The notes under the pieces are model-generated. The model searched no databases and was not told the DNA's origin. It was given only the letters and a program-made list of their open reading frames with translations. From Candidatus Omnitrophota bacterium (GTDB lineage: Bacteria > Omnitrophota > Gorgyraeia > Zapsychrales > Zapsychraceae), in NCBI GenBank assembly GCA_028280285.1, contig JANQMA010000042.1, positions 3,572 through 67,571 on the forward strand: a DNA stretch of 64,000 bases, given 5' to 3'. This document shows positions 6,595 through 60,187 of the stretch, one piece after another. A program made the position numbers and the translations under genes. How positions within the stretch are numbered: position 1 is the stretch's first letter; each line of letters begins with the position of its first letter.

Positions 6595-6609
6595 TATTAT
6601 AGACTAATT

Positions 6610-7221
6610 ATGAACAATAGTGCCCTAGTCATATTTGCCCGCGAACCAAAGCTGGGCAAGGTCAAGACACGATTGGCCAGAGATGTGGGTGAGGCCGAGG
6701 CCTTGCGTTTATATAAATCTTTTGTCCGTCAGACATTGAAGCTTGCGTCTTCACTCAAAAATCTTGACCGCTATATCTATTATGCCGGCTCCAATGCCTC
6801 CATGCCGTTTTTAAGGCAGTTTAAAAACAGATTTATATTAAAGCAGCAAAGGGGTGGCAATTTGGGCACGCGTATGTATAATGCGTTTGACCATTTATTT
6901 AAGGCAGGGTATCAGAAAGTTATTATTATTGGCACTGATTGTTTGGAAATCACAAAAAAAGACATTCAAACTGCTTATAAAAGATTAGATCGCGCGGATT
7001 ATGTCTTAGGGCCTACTTATGATGGAGGGTATTATTTGATAGGCGCTAAGTTAGCCCACAGGAGTGTGTTTCAAGGTATTACTTGGGGAACAAAAACGGT
7101 GTTTAATCAAACAAAGGCAAAGATTGTAAGGTGTGGGAAGTCATTAAAGGTGATACCCAAAAAGAGCGATATCGATTATTTAGCGGATTTACAGAGATTT
7201 TATAGACAAAAAAAGTTATGA
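6610..7221 (+). CDS. DUF2064 nucleotidyl/glycosyl-transferase-like protein (rSAM/selenodomain-associated 'transferase 1' type)
   Basis: N-terminal LVIFAREPKLGKVKTRLA, IIIGTDCLEI and GPTYDGGYYLIG motifs characteristic of DUF2064/CofC-like proteins. Confidence 0.6.
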   Translation: MNNSALVIFAREPKLGKVKTRLARDVGEAEALRLYKSFVRQTLKLASSLKNLDRYIYYAGSNASMPFLRQFKNRFILKQQRGGNLGTRMYNAFDHLFKAGYQKVIIIGTDCLEITKKDIQTAYKRLDRADYVLGPTYDGGYYLIGAKLAHRSVFQGITWGTKTVFNQTKAKIVRCGKSLKVIPKKSDIDYLADLQRFYRQKKL

Positions 7222-10321: not shown

Positions 10322-11686
10322 TTACTGCTTGCGCAAGTGCGACGGGAGGATATTTAGCTCTTTGCGGTATTTGCTTACGGTGCGGCGGGCAACTTTCATT
10401 TTTCTTTTCTCTAATATCTCTAAAATTTCTTGATCAGAAAAAGGTTGTTGTTTATTTTCCTCTTGGACAATCATACGCAGTTCTTCTTTAACGCTGCGGT
10501 TTGATATACTTTGATGGTTTCCATTTTTGGATACAGCTTGTGAAAAGAAATATTTAAGAGGAAATATGCCTTGAGGGGAATCCACGTATTTATTGCAAAT
10601 TGCGCGTGAAACTGTAGATTCATTGCGTCCTATTGTTCGGGCAATGTCGGCCAAGACCATTGGTTTAAGCGCGCTATAGCCTTCTTTAAAAAATTCCTGT
10701 TGATTGTTAACAATATAATCAGCGATCTCTTTAATGGTACTTTGTCTTTGTTCAATGCTTTTAATAAAGAGAAGGGCGCTTTTGATTTTGTCTTTGATGA
10801 ACTGCGTTTCTTCTGTGGTGCTGTTTGGCCGGTTGAGCATATTTTTATAGGCGGCGCTTACACGCAGCTGTGGGATGTACTCATTGGTGACGGTGGCCAC
10901 AAAATGATCATCCTGCTCAGTAATGATGATATCCGGTTTAATATAAAGATTGGCCGGTACTTCACTGAATTTTCTAGCCGGTTTTGGTTCCAGGGTCGCG
11001 ATTTCTTTAGCGTAAAGTCTGACATCCTCAGGACTGATTTTTAGTTTGCGTGCAATCGTATCAAACCTTTTCATGGCAAGGTCATCCAGATGGTCACGAA
11101 TGATAGATTGTATCATCTCACTATGTCCGTTAAAACGAAAGGGGATTTGTGCCAAAAGGCATTCTCTTAAATGGCGTGCCCCGATGCCCACAGGATCAAA
11201 AGTTTGAATTTGTTTCAGGATATTTTCCAGTTTATCGATATCAGCGATATTTAGCTCTTTTGCGATCTGTTGCATATTGCCCTCAAAGTAGCCGTCATTA
11301 TTGATGTAACTGATCAACAATTCCCCGATAGCAATATCCTGTGGATTATTCATTTCCACACGTAGTTGTTTAAGAAGATGTTCCTCAATGCCGATTGGTT
11401 TGGCAATGGGTTTTTCATCAGCGGTGTCATCATCACTGAAAAATGTGTCATTGACCGGTGTGATTGAATTTTGCTCGAAATTCTTTTTATTGTGGATGAT
11501 ATCGTTAATATAGCGGCTCAGTGTGGCTTCAACGTCCTCGGATTCAAGGACTGGGTTGGACTCCATTTCTGCCTCAATGGCTGTGCCCAGTTCAGCGATA
11601 GGTAGTTGCAGAACCTCGATTGATTGCTTCATCACAGGGGCAAAAATCTGCTTTTGGACTTGTTTTGTATTTTGTCTTAATTTCAT
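10322..11686 (-). CDS. rpoN: RNA polymerase sigma-54 factor
   Basis: Region I MKLRQ...QKQ...LQL. C-terminal HTH and RpoN box ARRTVSKYRKEL. 454 aa. Confidence 0.85.
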   Translation of the reverse strand: MKLRQNTKQVQKQIFAPVMKQSIEVLQLPIAELGTAIEAEMESNPVLESEDVEATLSRYINDIIHNKKNFEQNSITPVNDTFFSDDDTADEKPIAKPIGIEEHLLKQLRVEMNNPQDIAIGELLISYINNDGYFEGNMQQIAKELNIADIDKLENILKQIQTFDPVGIGARHLRECLLAQIPFRFNGHSEMIQSIIRDHLDDLAMKRFDTIARKLKISPEDVRLYAKEIATLEPKPARKFSEVPANLYIKPDIIITEQDDHFVATVTNEYIPQLRVSAAYKNMLNRPNSTTEETQFIKDKIKSALLFIKSIEQRQSTIKEIADYIVNNQQEFFKEGYSALKPMVLADIARTIGRNESTVSRAICNKYVDSPQGIFPLKYFFSQAVSKNGNHQSISNRSVKEELRMIVQEENKQQPFSDQEILEILEKRKMKVARRTVSKYRKELNILPSHLRKQ

Positions 11687-12044: not shown

Positions 12045-12060
12045 TGGCATGTTATTTGCT
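12045..12060 (+). promoter_or_regulatory. Sigma-54 (-24/-12) promoter
   Basis: TGGCATGTTATTTGCT matches the TGGCAC-N5-TTGCW consensus, with GG and GC spaced exactly 12 nt apart. It precedes the HTH gene and the Wza-Wzz-ATPase-kinase operon. Confidence 0.7.
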
Positions 12061-12330: not shown

Positions 12331-13086
12331 GTGGAGTGTAACGAAATGAGATTATTGATGAATAAATATAGTTGCTCTGTCCTGATAGTTGTGTTTGTCC
12401 TATTGTTTTGGACAACATCAGCCGGGGCACAAACGAATTTTGGCGATGTCATCGAAAGCGAAGAGACCTTAAGCGGGCAAGAATTATTACCACAACCAAG
12501 TAAATTATATACACTTGGTATTGATGATGTCATTGCAATAAACGTGTTAAGGCATCCAGAGGTGAGCGGCGAGTATATGGTTAATAATGAAGGTAATATT
12601 CAGTACGAATTCGTTGGAGATCTTTCTATTAAAAATAAAACAAAAAAGGAAGTGAAAGAGATCATTGAGCAGGCTTTGGAAAAATATATTATAGCGCCGG
12701 AGGTGACGGTTAAAATTATAGGGTATAACAGTAAAGTTGTTTATGTGATCGGAGAGGTTGGTCGACCCGGTAAAATATTTATTAGGGGAGATACGATTAC
12801 AATCCGTGAGGCACTTGTGCAGGCAGGGTTACCTACATTAAGTGCAAAGGCATCAAACAGTATGCTTATTACGCCAACGGAAGATGGCAAACCGGTTCAA
12901 ACCAAAGTTAATGTTAAGAAGCTTTTATTTGAAGGGGATTTAAGGGAAAATCTAGTTATGAAGCCCGGCGACACACTTTATGTGCCACCAACAGCGATGG
13001 CCAAGGCTATGCGGGTGATTCAACCAATTACAGCTCCGATTACAAATGCTGGTGGAGCTGCGCGTACGGTGACAACAGGATTTTAA
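12331..13086 (+). CDS. Periplasmic polysaccharide export protein (Wza/EpsE-like, Poly_export + SLBB)
   Basis: Signal peptide. YTLGIDDVIAINV... and VYVIGEVGRPG motifs typical of Wza-family export proteins. Confidence 0.75.
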   Translation: MECNEMRLLMNKYSCSVLIVVFVLLFWTTSAGAQTNFGDVIESEETLSGQELLPQPSKLYTLGIDDVIAINVLRHPEVSGEYMVNNEGNIQYEFVGDLSIKNKTKKEVKEIIEQALEKYIIAPEVTVKIIGYNSKVVYVIGEVGRPGKIFIRGDTITIREALVQAGLPTLSAKASNSMLITPTEDGKPVQTKVNVKKLLFEGDLRENLVMKPGDTLYVPPTAMAKAMRVIQPITAPITNAGGAARTVTTGF

Positions 13087-35264: not shown

Positions 35265-36458
35265 ATGAATATTTTATTCGTTACAAAAGAACTGCCGCAT
35301 CCGGTCAACAATGGCCATCGTATGCGTTCGATCAATATCTTAAAGGGTATTGCCGAAGGTAATACGATCGATATTGTCTGTATGGGGCAAGAAGATCAAA
35401 TGAGTGAGGCAAAAGTGGCATTAAAATCTTATTACCGCAATTTAATCGTTGTGCCGATGCGGCCGGATGATTTGCCCTATAAGCTGTGGACATTGATTAA
35501 AAGCATTTTCAGTTATCGCGCTTATTCTGTGCTACTGCGTCATTGCCAAAAAATGCGTACACTCATAGAAGAGCTTTGTGAGAATAATAATTATGATTGC
35601 ATTGTCAGCGATGGTATTCACATGATGGTTAATATTCCCAATACAGGGACAAAGACTATTTTATCCGAGCATAATATTGAATCGATGATTATTAAACGTT
35701 ATGCAGACGTGGCAACCGGTATTAAAAAATGGTTTGCTGATTTTGAACACCGTAAGATGAGTTCATACGAGGAGCTTACCTGGGCGCGAAGCGACGCTGC
35801 GTTTGTCTGTTCTGAAGATGATAAAAAATATGTGTGTGAGGTTATGCCGAGTGATGAGGTTTTTGTTGTGCCTAATGGAGTAGATGTTGACAATTATGAA
35901 ATCCGTAAAGGTGTAACAAAGGTAGCGAATAGTCTTATTTATACCGGTCTTATGGGATGGGCGCCGAATGAAGATGCTGTGTGTTATTTTGCCGAAGAGA
36001 TTTATCCGCTTATTAAGAAAGAAATACCGGATGCCCGGTTTTCGATTGTCGGGAAAGGGCCGAAGGAGCGTGTCATGGCTTTGGCCAATAAGGATCGGTC
36101 TATTCATGTTACAGGCTTTGTCGATGATATTCAAAAATATATGTGTGAAGCGGATGTATTTGTTGTGCCTATTCGTATCGGAAGCGGGACGAGACTAAAA
36201 ATACTTGAGGCTTTATCCCTTCAAATGACAATTGTTTCTACGTCAATAGGGTGTGAAGGTATAGAAGTTACTAACGGAGAAAATATTCTTATTAAAGACT
36301 CCCCACAGGGATTTGCCGATGCGGTGGTAGATGTTTTTAAAAACAGAGATAAATATAAAGATTTAGGCGTTAACGGACGAAAGCTAGTTGAAAAAAAATA
36401 TAGTTGGACGAAAGTCCGTCAGGATTTAAGTGAATATTTAAGACAATTAAATAATTAA
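35265..36458 (+). CDS. Family-4 glycosyltransferase
   Basis: VPIRIGSGTRLKILEALSLQMTIVSTSIG...ILI. Confidence 0.7.
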   Translation: MNILFVTKELPHPVNNGHRMRSINILKGIAEGNTIDIVCMGQEDQMSEAKVALKSYYRNLIVVPMRPDDLPYKLWTLIKSIFSYRAYSVLLRHCQKMRTLIEELCENNNYDCIVSDGIHMMVNIPNTGTKTILSEHNIESMIIKRYADVATGIKKWFADFEHRKMSSYEELTWARSDAAFVCSEDDKKYVCEVMPSDEVFVVPNGVDVDNYEIRKGVTKVANSLIYTGLMGWAPNEDAVCYFAEEIYPLIKKEIPDARFSIVGKGPKERVMALANKDRSIHVTGFVDDIQKYMCEADVFVVPIRIGSGTRLKILEALSLQMTIVSTSIGCEGIEVTNGENILIKDSPQGFADAVVDVFKNRDKYKDLGVNGRKLVEKKYSWTKVRQDLSEYLRQLNN

Positions 36459-36469
36459 GGAAAAAACTA

Positions 36470-37828
36470 ATGAATATATGTATTGTTGGAACAGGTTATG
36501 TGGGTTTGGTTACAGGGACATGTTTGGCCGATTTTGGTCACACTGTTGTCTGTGTTGATAACAATAAAGAAAAAATTGATATGCTCAACAATGGCGGCAT
36601 TCCTATTTATGAAATCGGTCTTAAGGAACTTATCGATCGTAATGTTAAAGAAAAACGTTTAAGTTTTACAAATGATTTAAAAAAAGCGGTTGAACAGTCG
36701 ATTGCTGTTTTTATTGCCGTAGGGACACCGCCGAAGCAAGATGGTTCGGCTAACCTAGAATATGTTTTTGATGTTGCCCGGGAAGTAGCGCAGCACATTG
36801 ACGGATATAAAGTTGTAGTAACAAAAAGCACTGTGCCTGTTGGGACGGGCAAAAATGTTTATAAGATTATCAGTGAAGAATTGGACAAACGCACATCAGC
36901 TGACTACTTAAAAGACCATCCTGAGGAGTCGGGCAAGAAATTTAGATTTGATGTTGTCTCCAATCCTGAATTTTTGCGTGAGGGTTCAGCCATTGAAGAT
37001 TTTATGCGTCCGGATAGAGTCGTTATTGGATCAGAGTCGGATAGTGCGATCGCGATTATGCAGGATATTTACCGCCCGCTTTATTTATTTGAAACGCCGA
37101 TGGTTATAACGAACATTGAGACATCGGAATTAATTAAATACGCGGCGAATGCGTTTTTAGCGACGAAGATTTCATTTATTAACGAAATGGGACATTTATG
37201 CGAGCGGCTTGGCGGTACGATTGATGATTTGGCTAAAGGGATGGGGCTTGATAAACGGATTGGATCTAAATTTTTACATGTTTCGCCGGGTTATGGGGGC
37301 TCATGTTTCCCTAAGGACACAACGGCGGTTGTTGATATTGCTCGGAATGTCGATTTCGATTTAAAGGTGGTTCAGGCGGCTGTCGAAGCCAATCAGCGCC
37401 AGAAAGAGATGATGGTTGATAAAATTGAAGCGGCAATGGGCGGAAGCCTTGATGGCAAGACCATCGGTATCCTCGGACTTGCGTTTAAACCTAATACTGA
37501 TGATATGCGCGAAGCGGCCAGTATTACTATTATCGAGGGACTGAAGGAAAAAGGCGCTAAGGTGCAGACCTTTGATCCGGTGGCAATGGATGAGGCAAAA
37601 AAATGCATTGGGGACATTGATTATCTGGAAGATGCCTATGCTGTGGCGAAAGATGCTGATGCTATTGTACTTTTGACCGAGTGGAATGAATTTCGCATGC
37701 TTGACTTAGGTAAAATTAAGGAGCTTCTCAAAACTCCTGTTTTTGTGGATTTAAGAAATGTTTATGATGCTGAACGCATGAAGGCTTTAGGATTTGTTTA
37801 TGAATCTTTGGGGCGGGGGAAGATATAA
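36470..37828 (+). CDS. ugd: UDP-glucose 6-dehydrogenase
   Basis: MNICIVGTGYVGLVTG Rossmann motif and catalytic GGSCFPKD. 452 aa. Confidence 0.85.
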   Translation: MNICIVGTGYVGLVTGTCLADFGHTVVCVDNNKEKIDMLNNGGIPIYEIGLKELIDRNVKEKRLSFTNDLKKAVEQSIAVFIAVGTPPKQDGSANLEYVFDVAREVAQHIDGYKVVVTKSTVPVGTGKNVYKIISEELDKRTSADYLKDHPEESGKKFRFDVVSNPEFLREGSAIEDFMRPDRVVIGSESDSAIAIMQDIYRPLYLFETPMVITNIETSELIKYAANAFLATKISFINEMGHLCERLGGTIDDLAKGMGLDKRIGSKFLHVSPGYGGSCFPKDTTAVVDIARNVDFDLKVVQAAVEANQRQKEMMVDKIEAAMGGSLDGKTIGILGLAFKPNTDDMREAASITIIEGLKEKGAKVQTFDPVAMDEAKKCIGDIDYLEDAYAVAKDADAIVLLTEWNEFRMLDLGKIKELLKTPVFVDLRNVYDAERMKALGFVYESLGRGKI

Positions 37829-37836
37829 ATTACGCT

Positions 37837-39012
37837 ATGCCGGTACTTATCAATACATTTTGGACATTACTTGGCCTCATTGTCTATTGTTATTTTGGCT
37901 ATCCATTTTTAGTTAAGGCTTTATCTTATATTGTTGCCAAGCCGGTTGCCAAGGACGATTTCGAACCGGAGGTTTCTATCCTCATTTCTGCTTGGAATGA
38001 AGAAGATGTGATTAAGGGCAAGATTAATAATTTACTTGCGCTTGAGTATCCAAAAGAAAAGCTTGAAATTATCATCGGTGCCGACGGGTGTACCGATAAA
38101 ACGGTTGAGATCATTAACGCTGTAAACGATCCGCGTGTGCGCTGCATTGAATATGATCAGCGTCGGGGAAAGATGACCACACTGAATAAACTAGTTAAAG
38201 AAGCTAAATATGACTATATTGTTTTTACCGATGCTCGTCAGTTTTTTGATAAAAATGCGGTCAGACAACTTTTAGCGAATTTTTCTGATAAAAAAGTCGG
38301 TTGTGTTAGTGGGGAATTGCGTTTTTGGGAAAAAGAGGGCGCAACGGCTAAGGGAGTTAATTTGTATTGGCAATATGAAAAATTTATTCGCGCGCAAGAA
38401 AGTAAGCTTGGTTCGATGCTCGGGGCAACAGGTGCTATTTATGCGATCCGCAAAGAATTATTTAGAGAAATTCCCGAAAATATTGTTTTAGATGATATGT
38501 ATGTGCCTTTTAAAATAATTGAACAAAAATACCGTGCTATTTTTGATGAATCGGCTTTTGTGTATGATGAGGTTGCCGATAATCCAAACGAAGAATACCG
38601 GCGTAAAGCACGGACATTATACGGTAATTATCAGATGTTCGGTCAATTTGCCCATATGTTTAATCCGTTTACCAGCCCTATTGCTATTCAGTATTTTTCA
38701 CATAAACTGCTTAGGGTTTTGGTGCCCATATTTATGATCGTTTTGTTTGTGATTAACTTTTTTATGCTGAGTGAACCTCTTTACTGGATGATGATGGGGT
38801 TGCAAATTTTGTTCTACACAATGGCCGGGCTAGGTGTCTTGGCAAGAGGTAAAAAGCATGTTATCCTTAAAGTCATTTTAAAAATAGTGTACGTGCCTTA
38901 TGTATTTTGTTTATTGAATTTTTCAGCGCTTTCAGGATTGCTGCGATTTCTAAGAGGGCGTCAAGAGGTGACATGGAAAAAAGCGAGAACAGTTAATGCA
39001 AGGAATAGGTAA
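37837..39012 (+). CDS. Membrane-bound family-2 glycosyltransferase (processive/cellulose-synthase-like architecture)
   Basis: N-terminal TM, then SILISAWNEE, GADGCTD, FTDAR and a C-terminal TM bundle. Confidence 0.65.
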   Translation: MPVLINTFWTLLGLIVYCYFGYPFLVKALSYIVAKPVAKDDFEPEVSILISAWNEEDVIKGKINNLLALEYPKEKLEIIIGADGCTDKTVEIINAVNDPRVRCIEYDQRRGKMTTLNKLVKEAKYDYIVFTDARQFFDKNAVRQLLANFSDKKVGCVSGELRFWEKEGATAKGVNLYWQYEKFIRAQESKLGSMLGATGAIYAIRKELFREIPENIVLDDMYVPFKIIEQKYRAIFDESAFVYDEVADNPNEEYRRKARTLYGNYQMFGQFAHMFNPFTSPIAIQYFSHKLLRVLVPIFMIVLFVINFFMLSEPLYWMMMGLQILFYTMAGLGVLARGKKHVILKVILKIVYVPYVFCLLNFSALSGLLRFLRGRQEVTWKKARTVNARNR

Positions 39013-39017
39013 TTTTT

Positions 39018-39836
39018 ATGATTAATGCTGCCAAAAAAAATTCAACACTCATTTTCATTTTTATCATTTTTCTTTTGGCCTATGTCCCGACGCTGCAGTG
39101 GATGTGGGATCGCTGGTGGGCGGCTGATTCCTATTATAGTCATGGGGTTTTAGTTCCTTTTGTGACCGCGTATCTTATTTGGCAGCTTAAAGATGAATTA
39201 GCTAACATAAAACAAAGTGAATCTAAATGGGGCATCGTTTTTATTATTATTGGTGTTTTGTTGCATTTAGTAAGTGCGCTATTTCGAGTATATTTCAGCT
39301 CAGGATTTGCGATGTTGATCGTTTTTATCGGGATAGCGTTATATTTTTATGGTTACGAAATTTGTAAAAGGCTTGCTTTTCCGATCTTTTTTCTTGCGTT
39401 TATGCTGCCCTTGCCAGAGGTTGCCATTGTTAATATCAGTTTTAAACTGAAGATGTTTGCTGCCGAGCTTGCAACTGTTGCACTTAATGGAATGAATATT
39501 CCGGCTATCCGTGAAGGAAGTTTAATTAAAATGCCGCATGCCTTTGTTGTTGTTGACGACGTGTGTAGTGGGCTCCGTTCACTTATTTCCTTAACCGCCT
39601 TAGGAAGTATTTTTGCCTATTGGCTTAAAGGACCGATATGGAAACGCGCCATTGTTTTTTTAACAACAATTCCGATTGCGATTATAACAAATATGCTGCG
39701 AGTGATTTTTTTGGCATTTGTCAGCGAAGTGTGGGGGGCTGAATATATCGATGGTTTTATTCATGACGCATCAGGCTTTGCTGTTTTCGCTATTGCATTT
39801 GTGATGTTGTATGTGGTTAATAAAGTGATTGAATAA
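39018..39836 (+). CDS. Exosortase (EpsH-type, probably XrtA-like)
   Basis: Eight-TM protein with exosortase motifs around DDVCSGLRSLISL (Cys) and ITNMLRV (Arg). It is followed by epsI and PEP-CTERM genes. Confidence 0.8.
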   Translation: MINAAKKNSTLIFIFIIFLLAYVPTLQWMWDRWWAADSYYSHGVLVPFVTAYLIWQLKDELANIKQSESKWGIVFIIIGVLLHLVSALFRVYFSSGFAMLIVFIGIALYFYGYEICKRLAFPIFFLAFMLPLPEVAIVNISFKLKMFAAELATVALNGMNIPAIREGSLIKMPHAFVVVDDVCSGLRSLISLTALGSIFAYWLKGPIWKRAIVFLTTIPIAIITNMLRVIFLAFVSEVWGAEYIDGFIHDASGFAVFAIAFVMLYVVNKVIE

Positions 39837-40468
39837 TGAATAAAAATGTTATCACCACAACTATCATCATTTTACTTTTAGCTTTTTCAGGCTATATTTC
39901 ATGGAATTTCTATTTCAAGGAATATAATGCTGCCGATACCGTTAATATCCATCTTTTTCCGAAAACAATTGGTGAATGGGAATCGACTGAGTTGGTCGTA
40001 ACAGAAAAAGAAAAAGCCATTTTAGAGACCGATAATGTGTTCGTGCGAAATTATTTGACAAAATCGGGGAAAAAAGTACAATTGTTCATAGTTTATTCCC
40101 AGAGCAACCGCAAGGTTAGCCATCCGCCTGAAGTTTGCTATACAGGTGGAGGGATTTCGATCTTAGAAAAAAAGAAGACTCCGCTTCAAACAGGTGAAAC
40201 AAACTTTAACGCAATCCAAATGCTCATGGAGCAAGGACCAAATAAGCAGTATGTGTACTATTGGTTCAAAGTAGGAGACTCCTTTACGCCTAATTATTGG
40301 CAACAACAATTATTGATTGCCACTAAATCGCTTTTGAAACAGCCTTCAAGTAGTGCGCTGATCCGCGTTTCGGCGTATATTGGTAATAATGGTGGAGAAA
40401 AGGCGAAAAAAGACGTTGAGGAATTTATCCAGTTAATTCAGCCTGAATTAGCTACATATCTGCCCTAA
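39836..40468 (+). CDS. EpsI-family exosortase-associated protein
   Basis: N-terminal TM, motif KTIGEWES, about 200 aa. Its start overlaps the exosortase stop, consistent with translational coupling. Confidence 0.65.
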   Translation: MNKNVITTTIIILLLAFSGYISWNFYFKEYNAADTVNIHLFPKTIGEWESTELVVTEKEKAILETDNVFVRNYLTKSGKKVQLFIVYSQSNRKVSHPPEVCYTGGGISILEKKKTPLQTGETNFNAIQMLMEQGPNKQYVYYWFKVGDSFTPNYWQQQLLIATKSLLKQPSSSALIRVSAYIGNNGGEKAKKDVEEFIQLIQPELATYLP

Positions 40469-40536
40469 GTGACCAAAAGTAGTGGACTTACACGTTAAAA
40501 AGCCAAATAAATATTGTTGATTCAATGCGACAAATG

Positions 40537-40562
40537 TCTAGGAAAGTGAACACCTTTCTAGA
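40537..40562. promoter_or_regulatory. Near-palindrome TCTAGGAAAGTGAACACCTTTCTAGA, candidate UAS
   Basis: Lies about 135 bp upstream of the sigma-54 promoter at 40697. An AT-rich tract suited to IHF binding lies in between. Confidence 0.3.
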
Positions 40563-40696: not shown

Positions 40697-40712
40697 TGGC
40701 ACGCTTATTGCT
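40697..40712 (+). promoter_or_regulatory. Sigma-54 (-24/-12) promoter
   Basis: TGGCACGCTTATTGCT is a perfect match to TGGCAC-N5-TTGC with 12-nt GG/GC spacing. It sits 75 bp upstream of the 40786 start. Confidence 0.75.
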
Positions 40713-40785: not shown

Positions 40786-41631
40786 ATGATGCAAAGAAAA
40801 GCCAAACAAATTAAACGAATCTCATTCGCTATGCTAATTGCTGTAGTTGGGTTGTATTGTACAGCAACAGCCTGGGCTGCTGTGTCCTATGTGCAGCCGA
40901 AAGATGCTGTTACTGCTCATAAGGTTACAACTCCAATTCCTGCAACAATTTCTGATGAGAACAAGTCGCGTGCGCCAGAACCGACAAGTTTGGCCCTGTT
41001 TGGGACAGGATTTTTTGGAATGGTCTTAAGCTTCATCCAACGAACCTATAGAGCAGCAAAGCGTACATTTGATGTTATTGCAGCCATTTTAGGCCTCATA
41101 GTTCTGTCTCCTCTTCTTCTTCTCGCAGCTGTGCTTGTGAAGGCGACGTCTAGGGGGCCTATTATTTACTCACAAACGCGTGTGGGAAAAGGTGGCGAGC
41201 TATTTGAGATATATAAATTCCGCACTATGCGTACAGATGCGGAAAAAGACACTGGTCCTGTGTGGGCCCAAACAAATGATAACCGTCTAACACCGGTTGG
41301 CGGTTTCTTAAGGAAAGCGCATATTGATGAGCTGCCACAGCTGATCAATATATTAAAGGGAGAGATGAGCCTTATCGGTCCACGTCCCGAAAGACCTGTC
41401 TTTGTGGAAGATTTCAAAGAACAGATTACAGATTACGAAAGACGTTTAGATGTTAAGCCAGGTTTAACTGGGTTGGCGCAAGTGTTTCATCGTTATGATG
41501 AAACCATTAATGATGTGCGTAAAAAGGTGAAGTACGATCTTCTTTATATTAAGAGGGTATGCTTTATGAGTGATATCCGCATCTTACTTCGCACCGTCCG
41601 TGTTGTATTTACGGGTGAAGGGGCTAAGTAG
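40786..41631 (+). CDS. Priming polyprenyl-phosphate sugar transferase (WbaP/EpsB C-terminal domain) with an N-terminal signal peptide and a PEP-CTERM-like motif in the same reading frame
   Basis: Residues ~90-280 are a bacterial sugar-transferase domain: KRTFDVIAAILGL...PVWAQ...LPQLINILKGEMSLIGPRPERP. Residues 1-80 read as signal peptide (MLIAVVGLYCTATAWA), ~35 aa, then APEPTSLALFGTGFFGMVLSFIQRTYRAAKR, a PEP + TM + basic sorting signal. There is no stop codon between the two parts. Confidence 0.7.
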   Translation: MMQRKAKQIKRISFAMLIAVVGLYCTATAWAAVSYVQPKDAVTAHKVTTPIPATISDENKSRAPEPTSLALFGTGFFGMVLSFIQRTYRAAKRTFDVIAAILGLIVLSPLLLLAAVLVKATSRGPIIYSQTRVGKGGELFEIYKFRTMRTDAEKDTGPVWAQTNDNRLTPVGGFLRKAHIDELPQLINILKGEMSLIGPRPERPVFVEDFKEQITDYERRLDVKPGLTGLAQVFHRYDETINDVRKKVKYDLLYIKRVCFMSDIRILLRTVRVVFTGEGAK

Positions 41632-41652
41632 GCGGAAAAGTGTCAAGGGCTT

Positions 41653-41696
41653 GTAAGAAGCCTATTTATATAGATGTAAGAAGATTGGCTTCTTAC
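41653..41696. promoter_or_regulatory. Inverted repeat GTAAGAAGCC...GGCTTCTTAC (10-bp arms, 24-nt spacer) upstream of the PEP-CTERM gene
   Basis: Seen directly in the sequence. There is also a direct repeat of gtaagaag. Confidence 0.3.
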
Positions 41697-41745: not shown

Positions 41746-42573
41746 ATGAAAAAACTTTCAATTGTACTCATTGCGATGACATTTATTGCAAGTGCTGCAA
41801 CTGCATCTTGGGCTATTCCTTTTAGTCAAGATACAGGGTTTGACACCACTACAGTACTATCTAATGATGGTATTGCTAATGACCAAACAAATGATGTCAG
41901 ATGGAACACAACGATACCTACATTACCAGTAGATCTTCCTGCTGGTTACAGTATTGTTAGTCCAACTGATGCGGATAGCGTTAATACGCTAACTTGGGGT
42001 TTGGTTAATGATGCAGGTGGAGCCGGTGGTGATACTGGTGATAACTGGGGCAACAGCAACTTCAGCGGTCTAAGAGTATTAGGTTTTGCTGGGGATGTTA
42101 CACCAAATGAATGGACAACAATTTCACGTGTTTATCACCAAAACAATCAGATTCCTAGTGGTGTTGCATCATTGTTATCTGCAACAATCAAATCTACTCT
42201 TACAGTAGGTACTGTAGATCTTAATACTGTACCGTTTACTTTTGAGGAAACAAACAATAGTAATAGTCCTTGCGATGGTCCTGGTGGTCTTGGATCATGT
42301 CCAGATGTGTTTGCATTCAGTGCATTAGATTTCACACCTGTACATTTTACTTACAACTTCGTTCCATATGTTGCAGAGTTTCGACTTGCAAACTTTGTTG
42401 ATTCAACTCTAGTAATTGATGGAACTGATTTTGAACTTTGGACTAGAGAAGGTGTTACAAGTGCTGTGGATGTTGAGTTTAAATTGACTAGTACTGTTCC
42501 AGAGCCAGCATCAATGGTTCTTTTCGGAACTGGTCTTTTAGGCGCAGCTGTTAGACGTAAATTCATCGGCTAA
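41746..42573 (+). CDS. PEP-CTERM sorting-domain secreted protein (exosortase substrate)
   Basis: Signal peptide MKKLSIVLIAMTFIASAATASWA. T/N/G/S-rich body. C-terminal VPEPASMVLFGTGLLGAAVRRKFIG. Confidence 0.8.
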   Translation: MKKLSIVLIAMTFIASAATASWAIPFSQDTGFDTTTVLSNDGIANDQTNDVRWNTTIPTLPVDLPAGYSIVSPTDADSVNTLTWGLVNDAGGAGGDTGDNWGNSNFSGLRVLGFAGDVTPNEWTTISRVYHQNNQIPSGVASLLSATIKSTLTVGTVDLNTVPFTFEETNNSNSPCDGPGGLGSCPDVFAFSALDFTPVHFTYNFVPYVAEFRLANFVDSTLVIDGTDFELWTREGVTSAVDVEFKLTSTVPEPASMVLFGTGLLGAAVRRKFIG

Positions 42574-42697: not shown

Positions 42698-43465
42698 ATG
42701 AAATTTAGATACAAAAATAAGAAGTTTGATATTAGCGGCACCTCTAAAGGGGATCATATTTATAAAAGCATTTGTAATGACCGGGTGTTTTATGAAATCG
42801 ATCTCTTGGAATATGCTGCACAATTGGTCAAAGGCCCAAACAAACCGGATAGCCTGGCCATAGATGCCGGGGCGAATATCGGTAATCATTCTATATTCTT
42901 TCAATCATTTATTGTTGAGCATCTCATCGCGGTTGAGCCTAATCCGGATACATTGCCGATACTGAAAAGTAATTTAGAAAAAAATATTCAGCATTACACT
43001 ATATATGAAAATGGTCTTGGCGAATCGTTCGGGCAGGGTTCGATTATTTTACCTGACTGCGATAAAGGTAATAAAGGGATGGCGCAAATAGGCCTTGGGG
43101 AAGGTGAGATTCAGGTGATTACACTCGATGCATTGGTCAAGGATTGGCAGGACAAAAATAATTTAAATGGACATGTGGCACTCATTAAAATTGATGTTGA
43201 AGGGATGGAGCTGGCGGTGCTTAAAGGGGCAGTCGAAACACTTAAAAAATACAGGCCCCACTTGCTGATCGAGGCGACGACCCCTCCGAAATTAGAAGAG
43301 TTTAAGGAGTTTTTAAGTGAGTTTGGATACGGTCCTATCTGTCATTTTGCGGCTACACCTGTCTATCATTTTTGCCATAAACCTACACAATACGCCCGTC
43401 TTAAAGCTGCGTTTATGAAACTGTATTTGAAAATAAAAAGAAGGCTTCTGAAAATCTTTTCCTGA
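42698..43465 (+). CDS. FkbM-family SAM-dependent methyltransferase
   Basis: AIDAGANIGNHSIFF and HLIAVEPNPD motifs typical of FkbM-family methyltransferases. Confidence 0.55.
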   Translation: MKFRYKNKKFDISGTSKGDHIYKSICNDRVFYEIDLLEYAAQLVKGPNKPDSLAIDAGANIGNHSIFFQSFIVEHLIAVEPNPDTLPILKSNLEKNIQHYTIYENGLGESFGQGSIILPDCDKGNKGMAQIGLGEGEIQVITLDALVKDWQDKNNLNGHVALIKIDVEGMELAVLKGAVETLKKYRPHLLIEATTPPKLEEFKEFLSEFGYGPICHFAATPVYHFCHKPTQYARLKAAFMKLYLKIKRRLLKIFS

Positions 43466-43471
43466 TGAGCC

Positions 43472-44914
43472 ATGTTTTTTAATTCTTTTGAATATGCCGT
43501 ATTTCTGCCAGTTGTTTTTTTGATTTACTGGTTTATTTTACGTGAAAATCTTAAGCTCCAAAATATTTGGATTATCGCGGCGAGCTATTTTTTTTATGCC
43601 TGTTGGGATGTGCGGTTTCTTTCCTTAATTGTTATAAGTTCAACCGTCGATTATTCTGTTGGTTTAGCTTTAGGGCGCGCGACTACCTGCTTACGACGCA
43701 AACTCCTTCTTTGGATCAGCATTTTAACCAATCTAGGTATTCTTGGAATTTTTAAATACTACAATTTTTTTATTGATTCGCTTTTGCATTTAACCCCTGG
43801 TTTGCAGGATATTTTAGGACATACCACATTAAATATTGTCCTTCCCGTAGGAATTAGCTTCTATACTTTTCAGACTTTAAGTTATACGATTGACGTTTAT
43901 AAAGGTAAACTTCAACCGACCAAAGACATCGTAGCGTTTTTTGCTTTTGTAAGCTTTTTTCCTCAGCTTGTGGCCGGCCCGATTGAGCGCGCCACAAATT
44001 TACTACATCAATTTTCGCATAAACGGCAATTCGATTATGAAAAAGCGGCAGATGGGATGCGGCAGATTTTATGGGGTTTATTTAAAAAGACTATGATTGC
44101 CGATATCTGTGCGGTTTATGTCGATGATATTTTTTCCAATTGGACCGGATATTCCGGAAGCACATTACTGATTGGGGTGGTACTGTTTGCTGTTCAAATT
44201 TATTGCGATTTTTCTGGGTATTCTGATATCGCGATCGGAACAGCACGCCTTTTTGGCTTTAATTTAATGCGTAATTTTGCTTATCCTTATTTTTCTCGTG
44301 ACATAGCTGAATTTTGGCGAAGGTGGCATATTTCTCTGTCAACATGGTTTCGCGATTATCTTTATATTCCGCTTGGAGGAAGCCGTGTCTCTTTTGGGAA
44401 AAAAATCAGAAATGTCTTTATTGTTTTTATCCTGAGCGGGCTTTGGCATGGGGCCAATTGGACTTTTGTCTTTTGGGGGCTCATTAATGCGCTATTTTTC
44501 TTACCCTTAATTTTAGCAGGAAAGAATCGAACGCACACGGATCTTCCTGCAGAAGGACGAATGTTTCCTGGTTTGAGAGAATGCTTTCAAATCAGCGGCA
44601 CTTTTTTCATTACAAATATTGCTTGGATATTTTTTAGAGCCAATGATTTGAATCATGCTTTCGGGTATTTAAAACGATTATTTAGTATTAGTTTGTTTTC
44701 CAGGCCAGATGTGATTCCTCTAACCTCTTTTCTTGCGACGCTGGGAATCTTTATCATTATTGAATGGATACAAAGAGAAAAGAATCATGTCCTTGAGATA
44801 GAACATTTCGCATTGCCAAAGGTTATCAGGTGGTCTATTTATTCTCTACTCATTTGTGTGATGGGAGTGGGAATGCGCACCACAGAAACGGCGTTCATTT
44901 ATTTCCAATTTTAA
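43472..44914 (+). CDS. MBOAT-family membrane O-acyltransferase (AlgI/DltB-like)
   Basis: MFFNSFEYAVFLPVVFLIYW start and catalytic-His region RRWHISLSTWFRDYLYIPLGG. 480 aa. Confidence 0.85.
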   Translation: MFFNSFEYAVFLPVVFLIYWFILRENLKLQNIWIIAASYFFYACWDVRFLSLIVISSTVDYSVGLALGRATTCLRRKLLLWISILTNLGILGIFKYYNFFIDSLLHLTPGLQDILGHTTLNIVLPVGISFYTFQTLSYTIDVYKGKLQPTKDIVAFFAFVSFFPQLVAGPIERATNLLHQFSHKRQFDYEKAADGMRQILWGLFKKTMIADICAVYVDDIFSNWTGYSGSTLLIGVVLFAVQIYCDFSGYSDIAIGTARLFGFNLMRNFAYPYFSRDIAEFWRRWHISLSTWFRDYLYIPLGGSRVSFGKKIRNVFIVFILSGLWHGANWTFVFWGLINALFFLPLILAGKNRTHTDLPAEGRMFPGLRECFQISGTFFITNIAWIFFRANDLNHAFGYLKRLFSISLFSRPDVIPLTSFLATLGIFIIIEWIQREKNHVLEIEHFALPKVIRWSIYSLLICVMGVGMRTTETAFIYFQF

Positions 44915-56511: not shown

Positions 56512-57482
56512 AAAAAATTATAATTGTATTTATCATTATCTTGGCCGCTATTTTTGCTGTTTTGACCTTTATGGGAAAAGAGGGAGGGCATGATGCTGAG
56601 AAGGAATTGTGGAACATAGCCCAAGAATTTAATAAAATAGCTGCCGATCCAGAGGCGACCCCGGATAATGCCTATGATGCGCTTGAGGAAAGGTATGAAC
56701 AGTTTATTAAAAAATATTCTAAGGCAGAAATTGCACCTCAGGCCTATCTTACCTATGCACGGTTAAAGGTACTGCGTAAAGATTATACGGAAGCCAAAAG
56801 ATTGTATGAAGAGCTCATTGCAAAATATCCTGACAATAAAGCCGCTAGTTTGGATGCATTGCTTGAAATCGGTAAAATTCAGACTATTGAAAAAGATGAT
56901 TTGGGTGTTTTGGATACCTATCAACGTGTTATCCGTGATTATCCGACAACAGAGATTGGTCTTAGAACACCGCTTTTGGTAGCGCAGTATTATCTGGACC
57001 GTAAGCAAAACAATCTTGTCGAAAAATCATTTAAAGAAGCGGCGGCGCATTATGAAAAATTGGCTGAGAAGGAAAAGGGCAAGCCCTCAGGATTCTATGC
57101 TCTTCAATACTTAACTGTTTGCTACATTGCGCAACAAAATTGGGATAAGGCCTTGGAAACGTATGAAGCCTCACTGCTGGGATACGCTGATTTAAATGTA
57201 TGGACACCGGAGAGTTTGTTAAAATTGGTCCGTGCCTTAAATACGATTTCGGCTACACAAAAGAAATCTCTAGACTATCCAATTAATCTTTACAGTAAAT
57301 TTATTGAAGAAAAACCAGAGCACCCCTTTACGCCAATTCTTCAAAAGGTCATTGAAACCTTAAAGCAGTTAAAAGCGAAAGGAGCCATTTCTCCTGATAC
57401 GACGGTTGAGTCTTTAAAGCAGGCAGTTGAAGATGCTGCCAATGAAGCGGCGGCGGAAGTTGTCCCTCAAACAACGGAGTAA
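56508..57482 (+). CDS. Membrane-anchored TPR-repeat protein
   Basis: N-terminal TM. TPR-like helical repeats (YLTYARLKV, AKRLYEELIAKYPDNKAA...). A/E-rich tail. Confidence 0.5.
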   Translation: MKKIIIVFIIILAAIFAVLTFMGKEGGHDAEKELWNIAQEFNKIAADPEATPDNAYDALEERYEQFIKKYSKAEIAPQAYLTYARLKVLRKDYTEAKRLYEELIAKYPDNKAASLDALLEIGKIQTIEKDDLGVLDTYQRVIRDYPTTEIGLRTPLLVAQYYLDRKQNNLVEKSFKEAAAHYEKLAEKEKGKPSGFYALQYLTVCYIAQQNWDKALETYEASLLGYADLNVWTPESLLKLVRALNTISATQKKSLDYPINLYSKFIEEKPEHPFTPILQKVIETLKQLKAKGAISPDTTVESLKQAVEDAANEAAAEVVPQTTE

Positions 57483-57483
57483 T

Positions 57484-58788
57484 ATGGAGGATTTGGGCCA
57501 GTCTTATTTATCGCGGCTTTCACAGACTGAGCTTTTTCAGGAAATTGCCACCATATGTGCTGCGGTCAATACGGTCGTATCAACCAATGAGTTGCTCGCT
57601 GTGTCTTTAGAAAATGTTCTTAAGCTTTTTAAAGCGCAAAGAGGCTCTATATTTATTCTTAATGATAAAGAAGATGAGTTAGAATTACGAGTTGCCGTTG
57701 GACTTGGCGGAGATGAACAAAAGGCTATTGTTAAACGTATGGGTGAGGGGTTTGTTGGGCAGGTTGCCCAAACAAAAGAGCCGATTATTGTTGATGATAT
57801 CGCACAGGATAAACGTTTTAAGGATCACAAAAGTAAAAATGGCTATAAAACATCTTCCTTTATTTGTGCTCCACTTCTTCTTAAAGATCAGCTTATCGGT
57901 GTTATCAATATTACGGATAAAGATTCCGGACACAAGTTTCTTACCAATGAATTGCAGTTGCTTGATTTTATCGCTTCACAAATTGCGCTTAATTACCGCC
58001 GGATTATTCTGTACCGCAAGTTTCAAACAGTCGTTAAGGAGACACAATCTCTGAAAGATAAGCTGGGTGAAACCGGCGAAGAAACTGCTCATTTAAAAAA
58101 GCAAATTATGATTCAGGAAAAGCTAGCGACGATCGGAAAGTTGGCTGGCGGCATTGCGCATGAATTTAATAATCCGCTTGACGGGGTTATGCGCTACACC
58201 AATCTTTGTCTTGATCAGATTCAAGATGATGAAGTGGTGCGCGGGTATCTGATGGAAATCAAGCAGGGGCTCAACCGTATGGCGATTATTGTGCGCAATC
58301 TTTTGCGGTGTTCACGCGACGATGTTTTGAGTCAGGAGAAAGTCAATTTAAAAAGTGCTTTGGGCCGGGCGCTTTATAATTTGCAAACGGACTTTTCACG
58401 CAAAGATATTGAAATCGTCGATGAAGTGCCGGATGAATTGCCGGACTTGATTGATCTTGGGCTTGAAAGGATCCTGGTTAATTTAATTCGTAATGCCATT
58501 GATGCCATCGAAGAGAAGGGCAAGATCTCGATTACGGCTCAATTTGAAAATGATGTGTTGATGTTTAATGTGGCGGATAACGGCATCGGCATTGCTCAAA
58601 CAAAAATTAATGAGATCTTTGAGCCGTTTTATACAACTAAAGATATTGATAAAGGCTGTGGCTTAGGATTAACCATTATTGGTGAGATAGTTAAAAGTTA
58701 TGATGGTAAGATCGATGTAGAGAGTCAGCCGGACTGCGGAACAACGTTTACCGTGCGCATTCCCCTGGAAAGAGAAGACAATGAGTAA
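57484..58788 (+). CDS. Soluble GAF-domain sensor histidine kinase
   Basis: GAF domain: GSIFIL...GQVAQTKEPIIVDD...VINITDK. HisKA IAHEFNNPLDGV. HATPase N/G boxes LIRNAIDA, DNGIGI, GLGLTI. Confidence 0.75.
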   Translation: MEDLGQSYLSRLSQTELFQEIATICAAVNTVVSTNELLAVSLENVLKLFKAQRGSIFILNDKEDELELRVAVGLGGDEQKAIVKRMGEGFVGQVAQTKEPIIVDDIAQDKRFKDHKSKNGYKTSSFICAPLLLKDQLIGVINITDKDSGHKFLTNELQLLDFIASQIALNYRRIILYRKFQTVVKETQSLKDKLGETGEETAHLKKQIMIQEKLATIGKLAGGIAHEFNNPLDGVMRYTNLCLDQIQDDEVVRGYLMEIKQGLNRMAIIVRNLLRCSRDDVLSQEKVNLKSALGRALYNLQTDFSRKDIEIVDEVPDELPDLIDLGLERILVNLIRNAIDAIEEKGKISITAQFENDVLMFNVADNGIGIAQTKINEIFEPFYTTKDIDKGCGLGLTIIGEIVKSYDGKIDVESQPDCGTTFTVRIPLEREDNE

Positions 58789-60187
58789 TGATAAAGACTA
58801 TAAATTGTTAATTGTTGATGATGAACCGCTGATCCGTGAATCACTTTTTGAGATTCTGCGCATTCAAGGTTATAGTGTGCGTATTGCGGCAACTGCTGAA
58901 GAGGCGCTCGAGCTTATGGCGCAGGAGCCGAGCGATATTATTTTAACCGACATGAAGCTTCCTAAAATGAGCGGTATTGAGTTGCTTGAAGCGGTTAAGG
59001 AAAAGTACCCACAAACAGGTGTTATATTGATCACCGGATACGGGTCGATTGAAACAGCTGTTGATGCCATGAAAAAAGGTGCGTTTGATTATATCACCAA
59101 GCCAATCAATGATAACGAAATTAAGCTGACGATCAGACGCATTATTCAACAACATCAACTGATTGCCGAAAATACGCAGCTTAAAACCATGATTGCCAAT
59201 GAAGGCCGTGGTTCTTATGGTGATATGATCGGCTCAAGCCCTAAAATGCAGAAGATTTACCATGTGATTGACTCGGTTGCCAGTACCAATGCAACGATAT
59301 TGATTAGTGGAGAGAGTGGAACGGGAAAAGGTCTTATTGCAAGAGCTATTCATGCCGCCGATAAAACACGCCAAGAAAAGCCTTTTGTCGAGGTGAGTTG
59401 CGGGGCTTTATCGGAAACCCTCCTGGAGAGTGAACTATTTGGCCATGTTAAGGGGTCTTTTACCGGGGCTATTAAAGATAAGCAAGGACGATTTGAATAT
59501 GCCGATGGAGGAACTATATTTTTAGATGAGATCGATGCTTTTTCTTTGAGTCTACAGGTGAAACTATTACGTGTTCTTCAGGACGGAGTGTATGAACGTG
59601 TGGGGGATAATGTGACGCGCACCAGCAATGCGCGTATTATTGTGGCCACCAATAAAAATTTGCTGGACTTAATTGATCGGGAGGAGTTCCGTGAGGACTT
59701 ATATTACCGCATTAATGTGATTGCTATTCAACCGCCGCCGCTTAGGGAGCGCAAAGAAGATATTCAATTGATTGTTGATTATTATCTGAAAAAATATAGT
59801 AAGGCGAATAATAAATCCATTTCCGGTTTATCGGATGAGGTTGCTCAGATGTTTCAGGCCTATGATTGGCCGGGTAATATACGGGAACTTGAGAATGTGA
59901 TTGAAGGGGCTGTTATTATGGCGTGTGATTCTATTGTTGAAAAGGATGATATTCCTCATGCTGCCAAATTTGAAGGCAAAGAAACGCGCAGTGCTGATGA
60001 GGTGTTGAAAGAGCAGTCTTTGAAAAAATTTGTCGAGATGCCGGAGAAGGAACACATTATCACAGTCCTTGATAGCTGCAATTGGAATCGTAACAAAGCA
60101 GCGGCAATCCTAGGTATTAACCGGACAACTCTTTATAATAAAATGAAAAAGTACGATATTTTAGAAAAGTCGTCCAATAATGGCTGA
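58781..60187 (+). CDS. Sigma-54-dependent response regulator (NtrC family; PrsR-like PEP-CTERM-box regulator type)
   Basis: Receiver domain LIVDDEP...TDMKLP. AAA+ sigma-54 interaction domain GESGTGKG with GAFTGA-like HVKGSFTGA. C-terminal Fis-type HTH NRNKAAAILGINRTTLYNKMKKY. Confidence 0.85.
   Translation: MSNDKDYKLLIVDDEPLIRESLFEILRIQGYSVRIAATAEEALELMAQEPSDIILTDMKLPKMSGIELLEAVKEKYPQTGVILITGYGSIETAVDAMKKGAFDYITKPINDNEIKLTIRRIIQQHQLIAENTQLKTMIANEGRGSYGDMIGSSPKMQKIYHVIDSVASTNATILISGESGTGKGLIARAIHAADKTRQEKPFVEVSCGALSETLLESELFGHVKGSFTGAIKDKQGRFEYADGGTIFLDEIDAFSLSLQVKLLRVLQDGVYERVGDNVTRTSNARIIVATNKNLLDLIDREEFREDLYYRINVIAIQPPPLRERKEDIQLIVDYYLKKYSKANNKSISGLSDEVAQMFQAYDWPGNIRELENVIEGAVIMACDSIVEKDDIPHAAKFEGKETRSADEVLKEQSLKKFVEMPEKEHIITVLDSCNWNRNKAAAILGINRTTLYNKMKKYDILEKSSNNG

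Follow-up and report, generated by a model that had tools for sequence, protein, structure and literature searches.

A PEP-CTERM-like membrane helix at the N-terminus of a small priming phosphoglycosyl transferase in Omnitrophota and Planctomycetota

Introduction

Why would the enzyme predicted to initiate an exopolysaccharide carry a protein-sorting signal? The question is raised by a gene at positions 40786..41631, on the plus strand, of a 64,000-nt stretch of Candidatus Omnitrophota DNA (GenBank assembly GCA_028280285.1, contig JANQMA010000042.1); the whole stretch is called the window below, and its numbering is used throughout. The gene encodes a PEP-anchored small phosphoglycosyl transferase (PGT), referred to here as PEP-PGT, and follows the genes for an exosortase and for EpsI in an exopolysaccharide (EPS) locus. 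A preliminary description, made from the sequence alone, had read the gene as a miniature PEP-CTERM protein joined in frame to a complete sugar transferase, and had proposed either that the leader is cleaved or removed by the exosortase (EpsH) or that the enzyme is tethered to it. Here we show that the fusion is a single, conserved protein, and we argue, at a rough probability of 0.55, that its PEP helix docks the priming transferase onto exosortase/EpsI.

In 2006, exosortases were predicted to link protein sorting with exopolysaccharide production, their genes sitting in EPS loci. To our knowledge, neither the exosortase acceptor nor its connection to polysaccharide synthesis is known. A priming glycosyltransferase with an exosortase-type helix, conserved beside exosortase-EpsI in two phyla, leads to a concrete hypothesis, an exosortase-PGT complex, and suggests that polysaccharide initiation and protein sorting are physically connected. 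The preliminary description had taken a coupling between sorting and polymer initiation to be, as far as it knew, undescribed, and no such fusion was found in the searchable literature: full-text searches, with subscription-only work outside their reach, turned up no priming transferase described as bearing a PEP signal. A dedicated NCBIfam model does not exist, and the source databases name the proteins only 'sugar transferase' or 'EPS polyprenyl glycosylphosphotransferase'. The raw PF07589+PF02397 architecture is already visible in automated Pfam annotations; its conservation, the sister family described below and the exosortase link appear not to have been described before.

One reading frame joins a PEP-CTERM-like module to a PglC-type transferase

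The gene (40786..41631, +) is an uninterrupted open reading frame (ORF) of 281 aa plus stop, with no internal stop or frameshift; the assignment draws on the reading frame itself, database homologues and an alignment. Three parts make up the protein: a Sec-type signal peptide, a periplasmic linker with a PEP-CTERM-like module, and a complete PglC-type small monotopic PGT. The signal peptide (aa 1-31; 40786..40878) was recognized by hydropathy and charge; it has five Lys or Arg and no Asp or Glu in aa 1-12, a hydrophobic stretch over aa 11-34 and a signal peptidase I site, A29-W-A31, after which it would be cut. The linker (aa 32-62; 40879..40971) opens, according to the alignment consensus, with (V/L)S(F/Y)(V/I)KPxDA (aa 32-40; 40879-40905), a motif that is conserved across the Omnitrophota family although the remaining periplasmic tail varies in sequence and length; the linker measures 30-45 aa in the family members. 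Pro-Glu-Pro, a transmembrane (TM) helix and a basic cluster then follow in that order, all within aa 64-93 (PEPTSLALFGTGFFGMVLSFIQRTYRAAKR). We delimit this PEP-CTERM-like module as aa 63-93 (40972..41064), comprising A-PEP, a TM helix at aa 67-84 and the cluster R85..R89..K92-R93, on the basis of TIGR02595 and PF07589, invariant residues and synonymous codon variation.

A hydropathy scan of the 281-aa protein found three hydrophobic segments (aa 11-34, 68-85 and 93-122), and aa 85-93 hold four Lys or Arg and no acidic residue. In an AF2 model computed from 30 homologues, with a mean pLDDT of 72.9, helices span residues 2-34, 68-106 and 108-121. The topology put forward in the preliminary description holds together: the PEP would face the periplasm, and the helix (aa 67-84) would cross to the cytoplasm, be anchored there by R85-R93 and lead directly into the re-entrant helix and then the cytoplasmic catalytic domain.

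The catalytic domain (aa 91-281; 41056..41628) was assigned with PF02397, phmmer and Foldseek. Its PF02397 (Bac_transf) match spans aa 92-275 at 228.7 bits (gathering score 27), which, with the continuous reading frame, bears out the proposed fusion of a miniature PEP-CTERM protein to a complete priming transferase. By phmmer the domain matched PglC (8e37/8g1n) and the C-terminal domain of WbaP (8t53), with query aa 91 aligned to PglC aa 10 (8e37; sequence E 7e-34), and the best PDB matches of the AF2 model in Foldseek were PglC 8g1n/8e37 (E about 1e-11; 7e-12 for the fold comparison with PglC). The re-entrant membrane helix (aa 94-121; 41065..41148), whose geometry is predicted, is marked by hydropathy, by the alignment with its invariant S108-P109 break, and by an AF2 helix break at 107. 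The catalytic Asp-Glu dyad, D181-E182 (in HIDELPQL; 41326..41331), is invariant and aligns to the DELPQL of PglC and WbaP. PEP-PGT is predicted to put the first sugar-phosphate on undecaprenyl phosphate, and no second Bac_transf PGT was found in the 64-kb window.

Campylobacter PglC (8e37, 8g1n; PF02397) shares with PEP-PGT the core from aa 91 to the end, the basic residues, the Ser-Pro re-entrant helix, the Asp-Glu dyad and PRPERP. In PglC, however, the KR at the start of the domain comes after about 9 residues, whereas in PEP-PGT it comes after 90, made up of the signal peptide, the tail, the PEP and a full TM helix; with this extension the N-terminus of PEP-PGT is predicted to lie outside the cell, unlike that of PglC. 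Families TIGR03013 (EpsB_2, XrtA/PEP-CTERM-associated) and TIGR03025 (EPS_sugtrans) are also PF02397 priming transferases of exosortase/EPS loci, but they are about 445 aa long, with a polytopic N-terminal domain and no PEP, and PEP-PGT matches only their C-terminal 195-200 positions: it is no TIGR03013 transferase, scoring 269.1 bits on that model, below the 393.35 cut-off, over profile positions 250-443 only, and it scores 308.1 bits on TIGR03025, just above the 295.55 cut-off, over profile positions 248-445 of 445 only. The N-terminal hydrophobic domain of the TIGR03025 family is replaced in PEP-PGT. Of the earlier assignment to a WbaP/EpsB-type transferase, the complete priming transferase stands and the type does not, since the enzyme is a small monotopic PGT of PglC type and not a large one of WbaP type.

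The module resembles the tails of genuine PEP-CTERM proteins

Against the PEP-CTERM models, aa 1-95 alone score 18.3 bits on TIGR02595 (cut-off 16) and 22.7 bits on PF07589 (gathering score 20.7), and the full protein scores 15.2 and 20.0 bits, respectively. The preliminary description had named TIGR02595 as a check; on both models the isolated segment lies above the cut-off and the full-length protein is borderline, just below it, and all 26 of the family N-terminal modules match TIGR02595 at E<=0.1. Compared with 53 genuine PEP-CTERM tails of the same loci, the module is about 40% identical outside the PEP tripeptide, and both share L.L(F/L)G.G..G. Elsewhere in the window the sole PEP-CTERM-like signal is the C-terminus of a canonical substrate of the THxN family encoded directly downstream (41746..42573, +; NF038125 95.4 bits, cut-off 85; PF07589 33.6 bits), which ends PEPASMVLFGTGLLGAAVRRKFIG.

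Canonical PEP-CTERM proteins (PMC1569441; TIGR02595/PF07589) resemble PEP-PGT in having a signal peptide, the PEP, a Gly-rich TM helix and a basic cluster, and in being encoded by single genes behind a long intergenic region with a sigma-54 promoter in genomes with an exosortase. They differ in that their signal lies, as a defining feature, at the C-terminus, whereas in PEP-PGT 188 residues, the whole enzyme, come after R93, so that a cytoplasmic enzyme of 190 aa follows the signal, and in that the 'cargo' of PEP-PGT is only about 32 aa long and absent in Planctomycetota. As the module is not C-terminal, PEP-PGT should not simply be filed as a PEP-CTERM protein. PEP-CTERM-type signals are then not confined to C-termini, which bears on annotation rules.

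The fusion is conserved throughout the Omnitrophota family

A search across 5.8 billion proteins returned more than 100 full-length clusters at 59-85% identity whose named sources are metagenome-assembled genomes of Candidatus Omnitrophota, and many of these clusters already bear precomputed PF07589+PF02397 matches. Among 120 homologues analysed for the PEP and its spacing, 119 keep the PEP, the lone exception reading SEP, and the distance from PEP to KR is exactly 25 residues in every one. A 30-sequence alignment shows P64, E65, P66, L71, G78, M79, Y88, K92 and R93 to be invariant and aa ~40-60 to be variable. An AxA lies 30-45 aa before the PEP in 103 of the 120 (AWA in 83), behind a basic n-region and a hydrophobic core. 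Conservation of the fusion in relatives, a check named in the preliminary description, was thus found, and the homologues do not start at the internal Met.

It could be argued that the locus instead holds two genes, or a PGT that starts at Met79, and that faulty sequencing or annotation produced the fusion. No homologue in the alignment varies at M79, and translation from there would give what resembles an ordinary PglC-type PGT, with 13 residues before KR. However, the same unbroken ORF recurs in more than 100 independent database clusters and in 29 GTDB species genomes, and we reject two genes or a frameshift accordingly. Codons of the LFGxGxxGM stretch vary freely at synonymous sites, and this free synonymous change, beside conservation at the protein level, indicates that the N-terminal region is translated. 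Ahead of M79, all four Gly codons occur, each at its background frequency; no Shine-Dalgarno sequence is therefore under selection there, and the nucleotides lend no support to an internal ribosome-binding site. Together with the protein conservation upstream and a conserved sigma-54 promoter placed before the long ORF, the Gly codon usage leads us to reject an internal start at M79; moreover, 30% of true substrate tails, after which no protein follows, have a Met at the equivalent place in the helix. We regard an artefact as highly improbable, and the question of whether residues 1-80 are an annotation chimera is answered in the negative by the conservation and the synonymous codon variation.

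Scanning one genome per GTDB species with the N-terminal module gave 29 loci, nearly all labelled Omnitrophota. Loci L003, L006, L008, L016, L020, L022, L025, L026 and L031 carry the labels Lysobacterales, 'uncultured Planctomycetales' or Clostridia; the L003 protein is 75% identical to the window protein and its synteny is identical. Such labels on Omnitrophota-type loci are likely to be binning or naming artefacts rather than a real taxonomic spread.

PEP-PGT genes lie behind exosortase, EpsI and a sigma-54 promoter

The gene was described as lying after epsH-epsI, and the two are indeed immediately upstream. The exosortase (39018..39836, +; TIGR02602 172.6 bits, PF09721 224.9 bits) belongs to the EpsH family and reaches no curated subtype, falling below the XrtA and XrtD cut-offs; EpsI, the exosortase-associated protein, is encoded at 39836..40468 (+; TIGR02914 110.8 bits, PF11984 128.1 bits). 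Genes for GT1, UDP-glucose dehydrogenase and GT2, assigned with Pfam, precede the exosortase (35265..39012, +), and this block is conserved with PEP-PGT. Exosortase-EpsI stands directly upstream of PEP-PGT in 26 of the 29 Omnitrophota-type loci, usually after the same GT2, and also at the divergent members L034 and L035. Across 27 paired loci the exosortase keeps its catalytic Cys (in DDVCSGLRS), Arg and His without exception.

A zero-mismatch match to TGGCAC-N5-TTGCW occurs at one site in 64 kb, 73 nt upstream of the ATG (40697..40712, +; TGGCACGCTTATTGCT, with TTGCT as the second element). This is the site that the preliminary description had called a sigma-54 promoter, and it is conserved in the orthologous loci. 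If one mismatch is allowed, the window has 3 sites, which is not above shuffled sequences (mean 2.16); the significance of the promoter therefore rests on its conservation. A perfect site was found in 20 Omnitrophota loci (window included) and a site with one mismatch in 6, located 0-115 nt before the predicted start. The -24 GG/-12 GC spacing is correct, and the window encodes both sigma-54 itself (rpoN; 10322..11686, -; TIGR02395 412.8 bits) and an enhancer-binding protein (58781-60187). The latter is the sigma-54-dependent response regulator encoded with a histidine kinase (57427..60187, +), a pair that is PrsK/PrsR-like but below the equivalog cut-offs (TIGR02915 410.5 bits vs 502.6). The tetratricopeptide repeat (TPR)/histidine kinase/response regulator block resembles PrsT/PrsK/PrsR, and the same block lies downstream of the orthologue in loci L001 and L034. 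From these features we predict that the 40697 site is the sigma-54 promoter of PEP-PGT. PEP-CTERM genes are typically single and lie behind long intergenic regions with a sigma-54 site (Haft et al. 2006; PMC1569441); PEP-PGT thus appears to be regulated like the gene of a PEP-CTERM substrate, and its promoter is expected rather than new.

Further upstream, most Omnitrophota loci (among them L001, L004, L008, L013, L014, L016, L021, L024, L025 and L030) have three or four TGTC elements with a 10-bp period, often as TGTC[AC]TAG, about 90-190 nt upstream of the promoter. The motif TGTCNTAG occurs at 2.1 per kb upstream of the sigma-54 promoter vs 0.063 per kb elsewhere in the loci, and a CAACA-N2-4-TGTT palindrome followed by (A/C)AACA is found still further upstream than the TGTC elements. 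The TGTC elements and the palindrome are probably sites for the enhancer-binding protein and a second regulator. In the window the corresponding region is weak, a possible degenerate activator region at 40515..40545 (+; TGTTGATTCAATGCGACAAATGTCTAGG) suggested by the TGTC repeats of related loci.

A sister family in Planctomycetota retains the PEP helix and lacks the leader

Searching metagenome contigs with the window exosortase gave only 6 loci, most of them too short. One, L040, comes from a GC-rich organism and has a PGT after exosortase-EpsI that starts MPEPATILVLGSG..., with in-frame stops just upstream; its exosortase is 36% identical to that of the window. A search with the L040 protein led to a large Planctomycetota family of about 224 aa. 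Among 120 Planctomycetota members, 96 gene calls start exactly with MPEP, and most of the others are obvious start-site miscalls. These M-PEP PGTs have neither signal peptide nor periplasmic tail, and the family shows the same PEP-25 aa-KR spacing, with basic residues clustered behind the helix. Taken by itself, the 35-residue MPEP N-terminus reaches 19.0 bits on TIGR02595. The catalytic domains of the family and of the window PGT are about 50% identical (51.6% over aa 62-280). Exosortase-EpsI is upstream of the M-PEP PGT in loci L040, L043 and L045, L045 sharing with the window the whole block of GT1, UDP-glucose dehydrogenase, GT2, exosortase and EpsI, in the order also seen in the Omnitrophota loci, and a sigma-54 site lies 64-82 nt before the ATG in 4/4 Planctomycetota loci. 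By contrast, the closest PEP-less relatives, P0282 and P0297, have nothing ahead of the re-entrant helix; the PEP helix is thus dispensable for the catalytic domain as such.

Between EpsI and the M-PEP PGT, L045 has a small ORF with a PilZ domain (6602-6982; weak Pfam match), which hints at an input from c-di-GMP where the Omnitrophota loci have only a regulatory intergenic region; L043 has an unannotated 112-aa ORF in the same place.

An exhaustive profile search with the N-terminal module, with follow-up look-ups, revealed variants with different lengths of sequence before the PEP. In P0142 these are a signal peptide and 7 residues, in P0139 13 residues that lack a signal peptide; the standard form is kept, at 46-56% identity, by P0152, P0190 and P0178. 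In P0164 a signal peptide and a choice-of-anchor N domain of about 190 aa (NF038141, 53.8 bits, cut-off 40) precede the PEP-TM-PGT. The genes for P0152, P0190 and P0164 adjoin exosortase and/or EpsI and PEP-CTERM genes. The transferase domain of P0164 (L032 8001-9377; also in L031) is interrupted by about 25 aa of highly basic sequence (RRRSGERKKVKKCKEERRKIASPGR), and the PEP tail of P0164 shares 59% identity with those encoded by the two PEP-CTERM genes just upstream. We considered that its N-terminal domain might be a paralogue of these neighbouring PEP-CTERM proteins and rejected this because the match is confined to the PEP tails (59% over 27-29 aa).

The same search also returned single ORFs with serial, complete PEP-CTERM units: P0141 (1235 aa), P0144 (751 aa), P0146 (564 aa), P0161 (328 aa) and P0130 (2500 aa, 9 matches). 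In each of them a fresh signal-peptide-like segment and a further domain come directly after PEP-TM-RRRR. They are either natural 'polyprotein' substrates of exosortase or gene calls that were merged, and give a further example of PEP signals at internal positions.

Proposed docking onto exosortase/EpsI and the alternatives

We propose that the PEP-TM-basic helix of PEP-PGT is offered to the exosortase oriented like a normal substrate's C-terminal anchor, and would thereby dock the priming enzyme onto the exosortase/EpsI machine. Initiation of the exopolysaccharide and PEP-CTERM protein sorting would then share a membrane site and sigma-54/PrsR-like control. The exosortase may also trim the short periplasmic tail at the PEP; such trimming would be secondary to docking, because the enzyme stays in the membrane either way. 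What lies before the PEP ranges from 0 aa to a choice-of-anchor N domain of about 190 aa, while the PEP, the helix and the register to the enzyme are constant. It follows that the PEP helix must carry the conserved function, and its tolerance of such a range suggests that the helix behaves as a genuine exosortase-type anchor.

A second possibility is maturation by processing: the full-length protein would be a true substrate, and the exosortase would cleave at the PEP and pass a peptide of about 32 aa, or a larger cargo, to an acceptor, thereby activating or inactivating the TM-PGT. Exosortase activity would then gate EPS initiation. The Omnitrophota form does have every feature of a substrate, namely a signal peptide (AxA in 103/120), the PEP, the TM helix and the basic cluster; the conserved mature N-terminus (V/L)S(F/Y)(V/I)KPxDA suggests that the tail has a role of its own, and P0164 bears a bona fide cargo-type domain before its PEP. 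However, cleavage of the Planctomycetota M-PEP form would take off at most 4 residues, and yet the PEP, its spacing, the neighbourhood and the promoter are conserved there; only 7-13 residues precede the PEP in P0139 and P0142, and the linker is otherwise poorly conserved in sequence and length. Since the M-PEP form has nothing to release, the conserved element is the PEP helix and not the leader. We judge a processing-dependent enzyme to be rather unlikely. Of the two possibilities raised in the preliminary description, the comparative data favour tethering over cleavage or removal of the leader by EpsH, because in the M-PEP family the PEP and its spacing persist, as do the promoter and the neighbouring exosortase-EpsI.

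A simpler account would be that a TM helix derived from a PEP-CTERM signal only orients or stabilises the small PGT in the membrane, with no contact to exosortase. Small PGTs tolerate diverse N-terminal additions, WbaP having four TM helices before the same domain, and an anchor of this kind would fit the borderline model scores, the few loci that have no exosortase nearby, and a module whose hydrophobic stretch is longer and which differs at several positions from the tails of substrates. Nevertheless, a plain anchor gives no reason for a PEP in 119/120 Omnitrophota and at least 96/120 Planctomycetota sequences at a fixed distance of 25 residues. Nor does it account for an exosortase-EpsI adjacency that persists in both phyla with exosortases that have drifted apart to 36% identity, or for PEP-less relatives (P0282, P0297) that start at the re-entrant helix and whose catalytic domain needs no such helix. 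In our estimate a mere anchor is therefore a doubtful explanation.

Several observations weigh against docking. The intact protein falls just short of the cut-offs of both PEP-CTERM models. The module departs systematically from true substrates, with Ala in place of Val, Ile or Asn before the PEP (a subtype A-PEP-[ST]-T), a G-M that never varies and 2-3 additional residues in the hydrophobic stretch. Its similarity to substrate tails of the same genome is 0.42, vs 0.40 for those of other genomes (permutation p 0.02-0.04), so marginal an effect that we dropped this comparison as a test of shared recognition. L015, L023 and L044 have no exosortase within 6-8 kb of PEP-PGT; the AF2 confidence is low around aa 42-73; and simple docking does not explain why the Omnitrophota form conserves (V/L)S(F/Y)(V/I)KPxDA at its mature N-terminus. 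Recognition of the helix by exosortase is, moreover, something we infer, and the case for docking is drawn from sequence resemblance, conservation and gene neighbourhood. For these reasons we place it only somewhat above even odds, at the value of 0.55 given at the outset. The exosortase-EPS connection nonetheless becomes experimentally approachable, as natural variants exist both with no cargo (M-PEP) and with cargo.

In Gram-positive bacteria, the acceptor of the sorting transpeptidase Sortase A is lipid II, an undecaprenyl-linked glycan that originates from a priming transferase of phosphoglycosyl type. A PGT docked on exosortase would follow the same logic, by analogy only, as these enzymes have no homology to PEP-PGT or exosortase. 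Taken one step further, the PGT might be a stable subunit of exosortase/EpsI, and its flipped, undecaprenyl-diphosphate-linked glycan might be the acceptor for PEP-CTERM proteins. That the PGT product serves in this way is a hypothesis, and we consider it a long shot. If true, it would be a Gram-negative counterpart of the sortase that attaches proteins to lipid II, would explain why exosortases are always found in EPS loci and would identify the long-sought exosortase acceptor.

Other features of the window

The window also holds a Wza-like export gene with a near-consensus sigma-54 site, and a PCP-like gene. The site (12045-12060, +; TGGCATGTTATTTGCT) has one mismatch and lies between rpoN (-) and the Wza-like gene (12331-13086, +), ahead of a run of polysaccharide export, PCP-like and AAA_22 genes; its position before the export genes suggests that RpoN controls the whole EPS locus. 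Directly after the THxN-family PEP-CTERM gene, at 42698-44914, genes for an FkbM-type methyltransferase and an MBOAT (DltB-like) O-acyltransferase were found, and the polysaccharide or the sorted proteins may accordingly be methylated or acylated. Finally, a terminator-like hairpin with a weak T tract, detected as a consensus match only, follows the stop codon of PEP-PGT at 41647..41663 (+).

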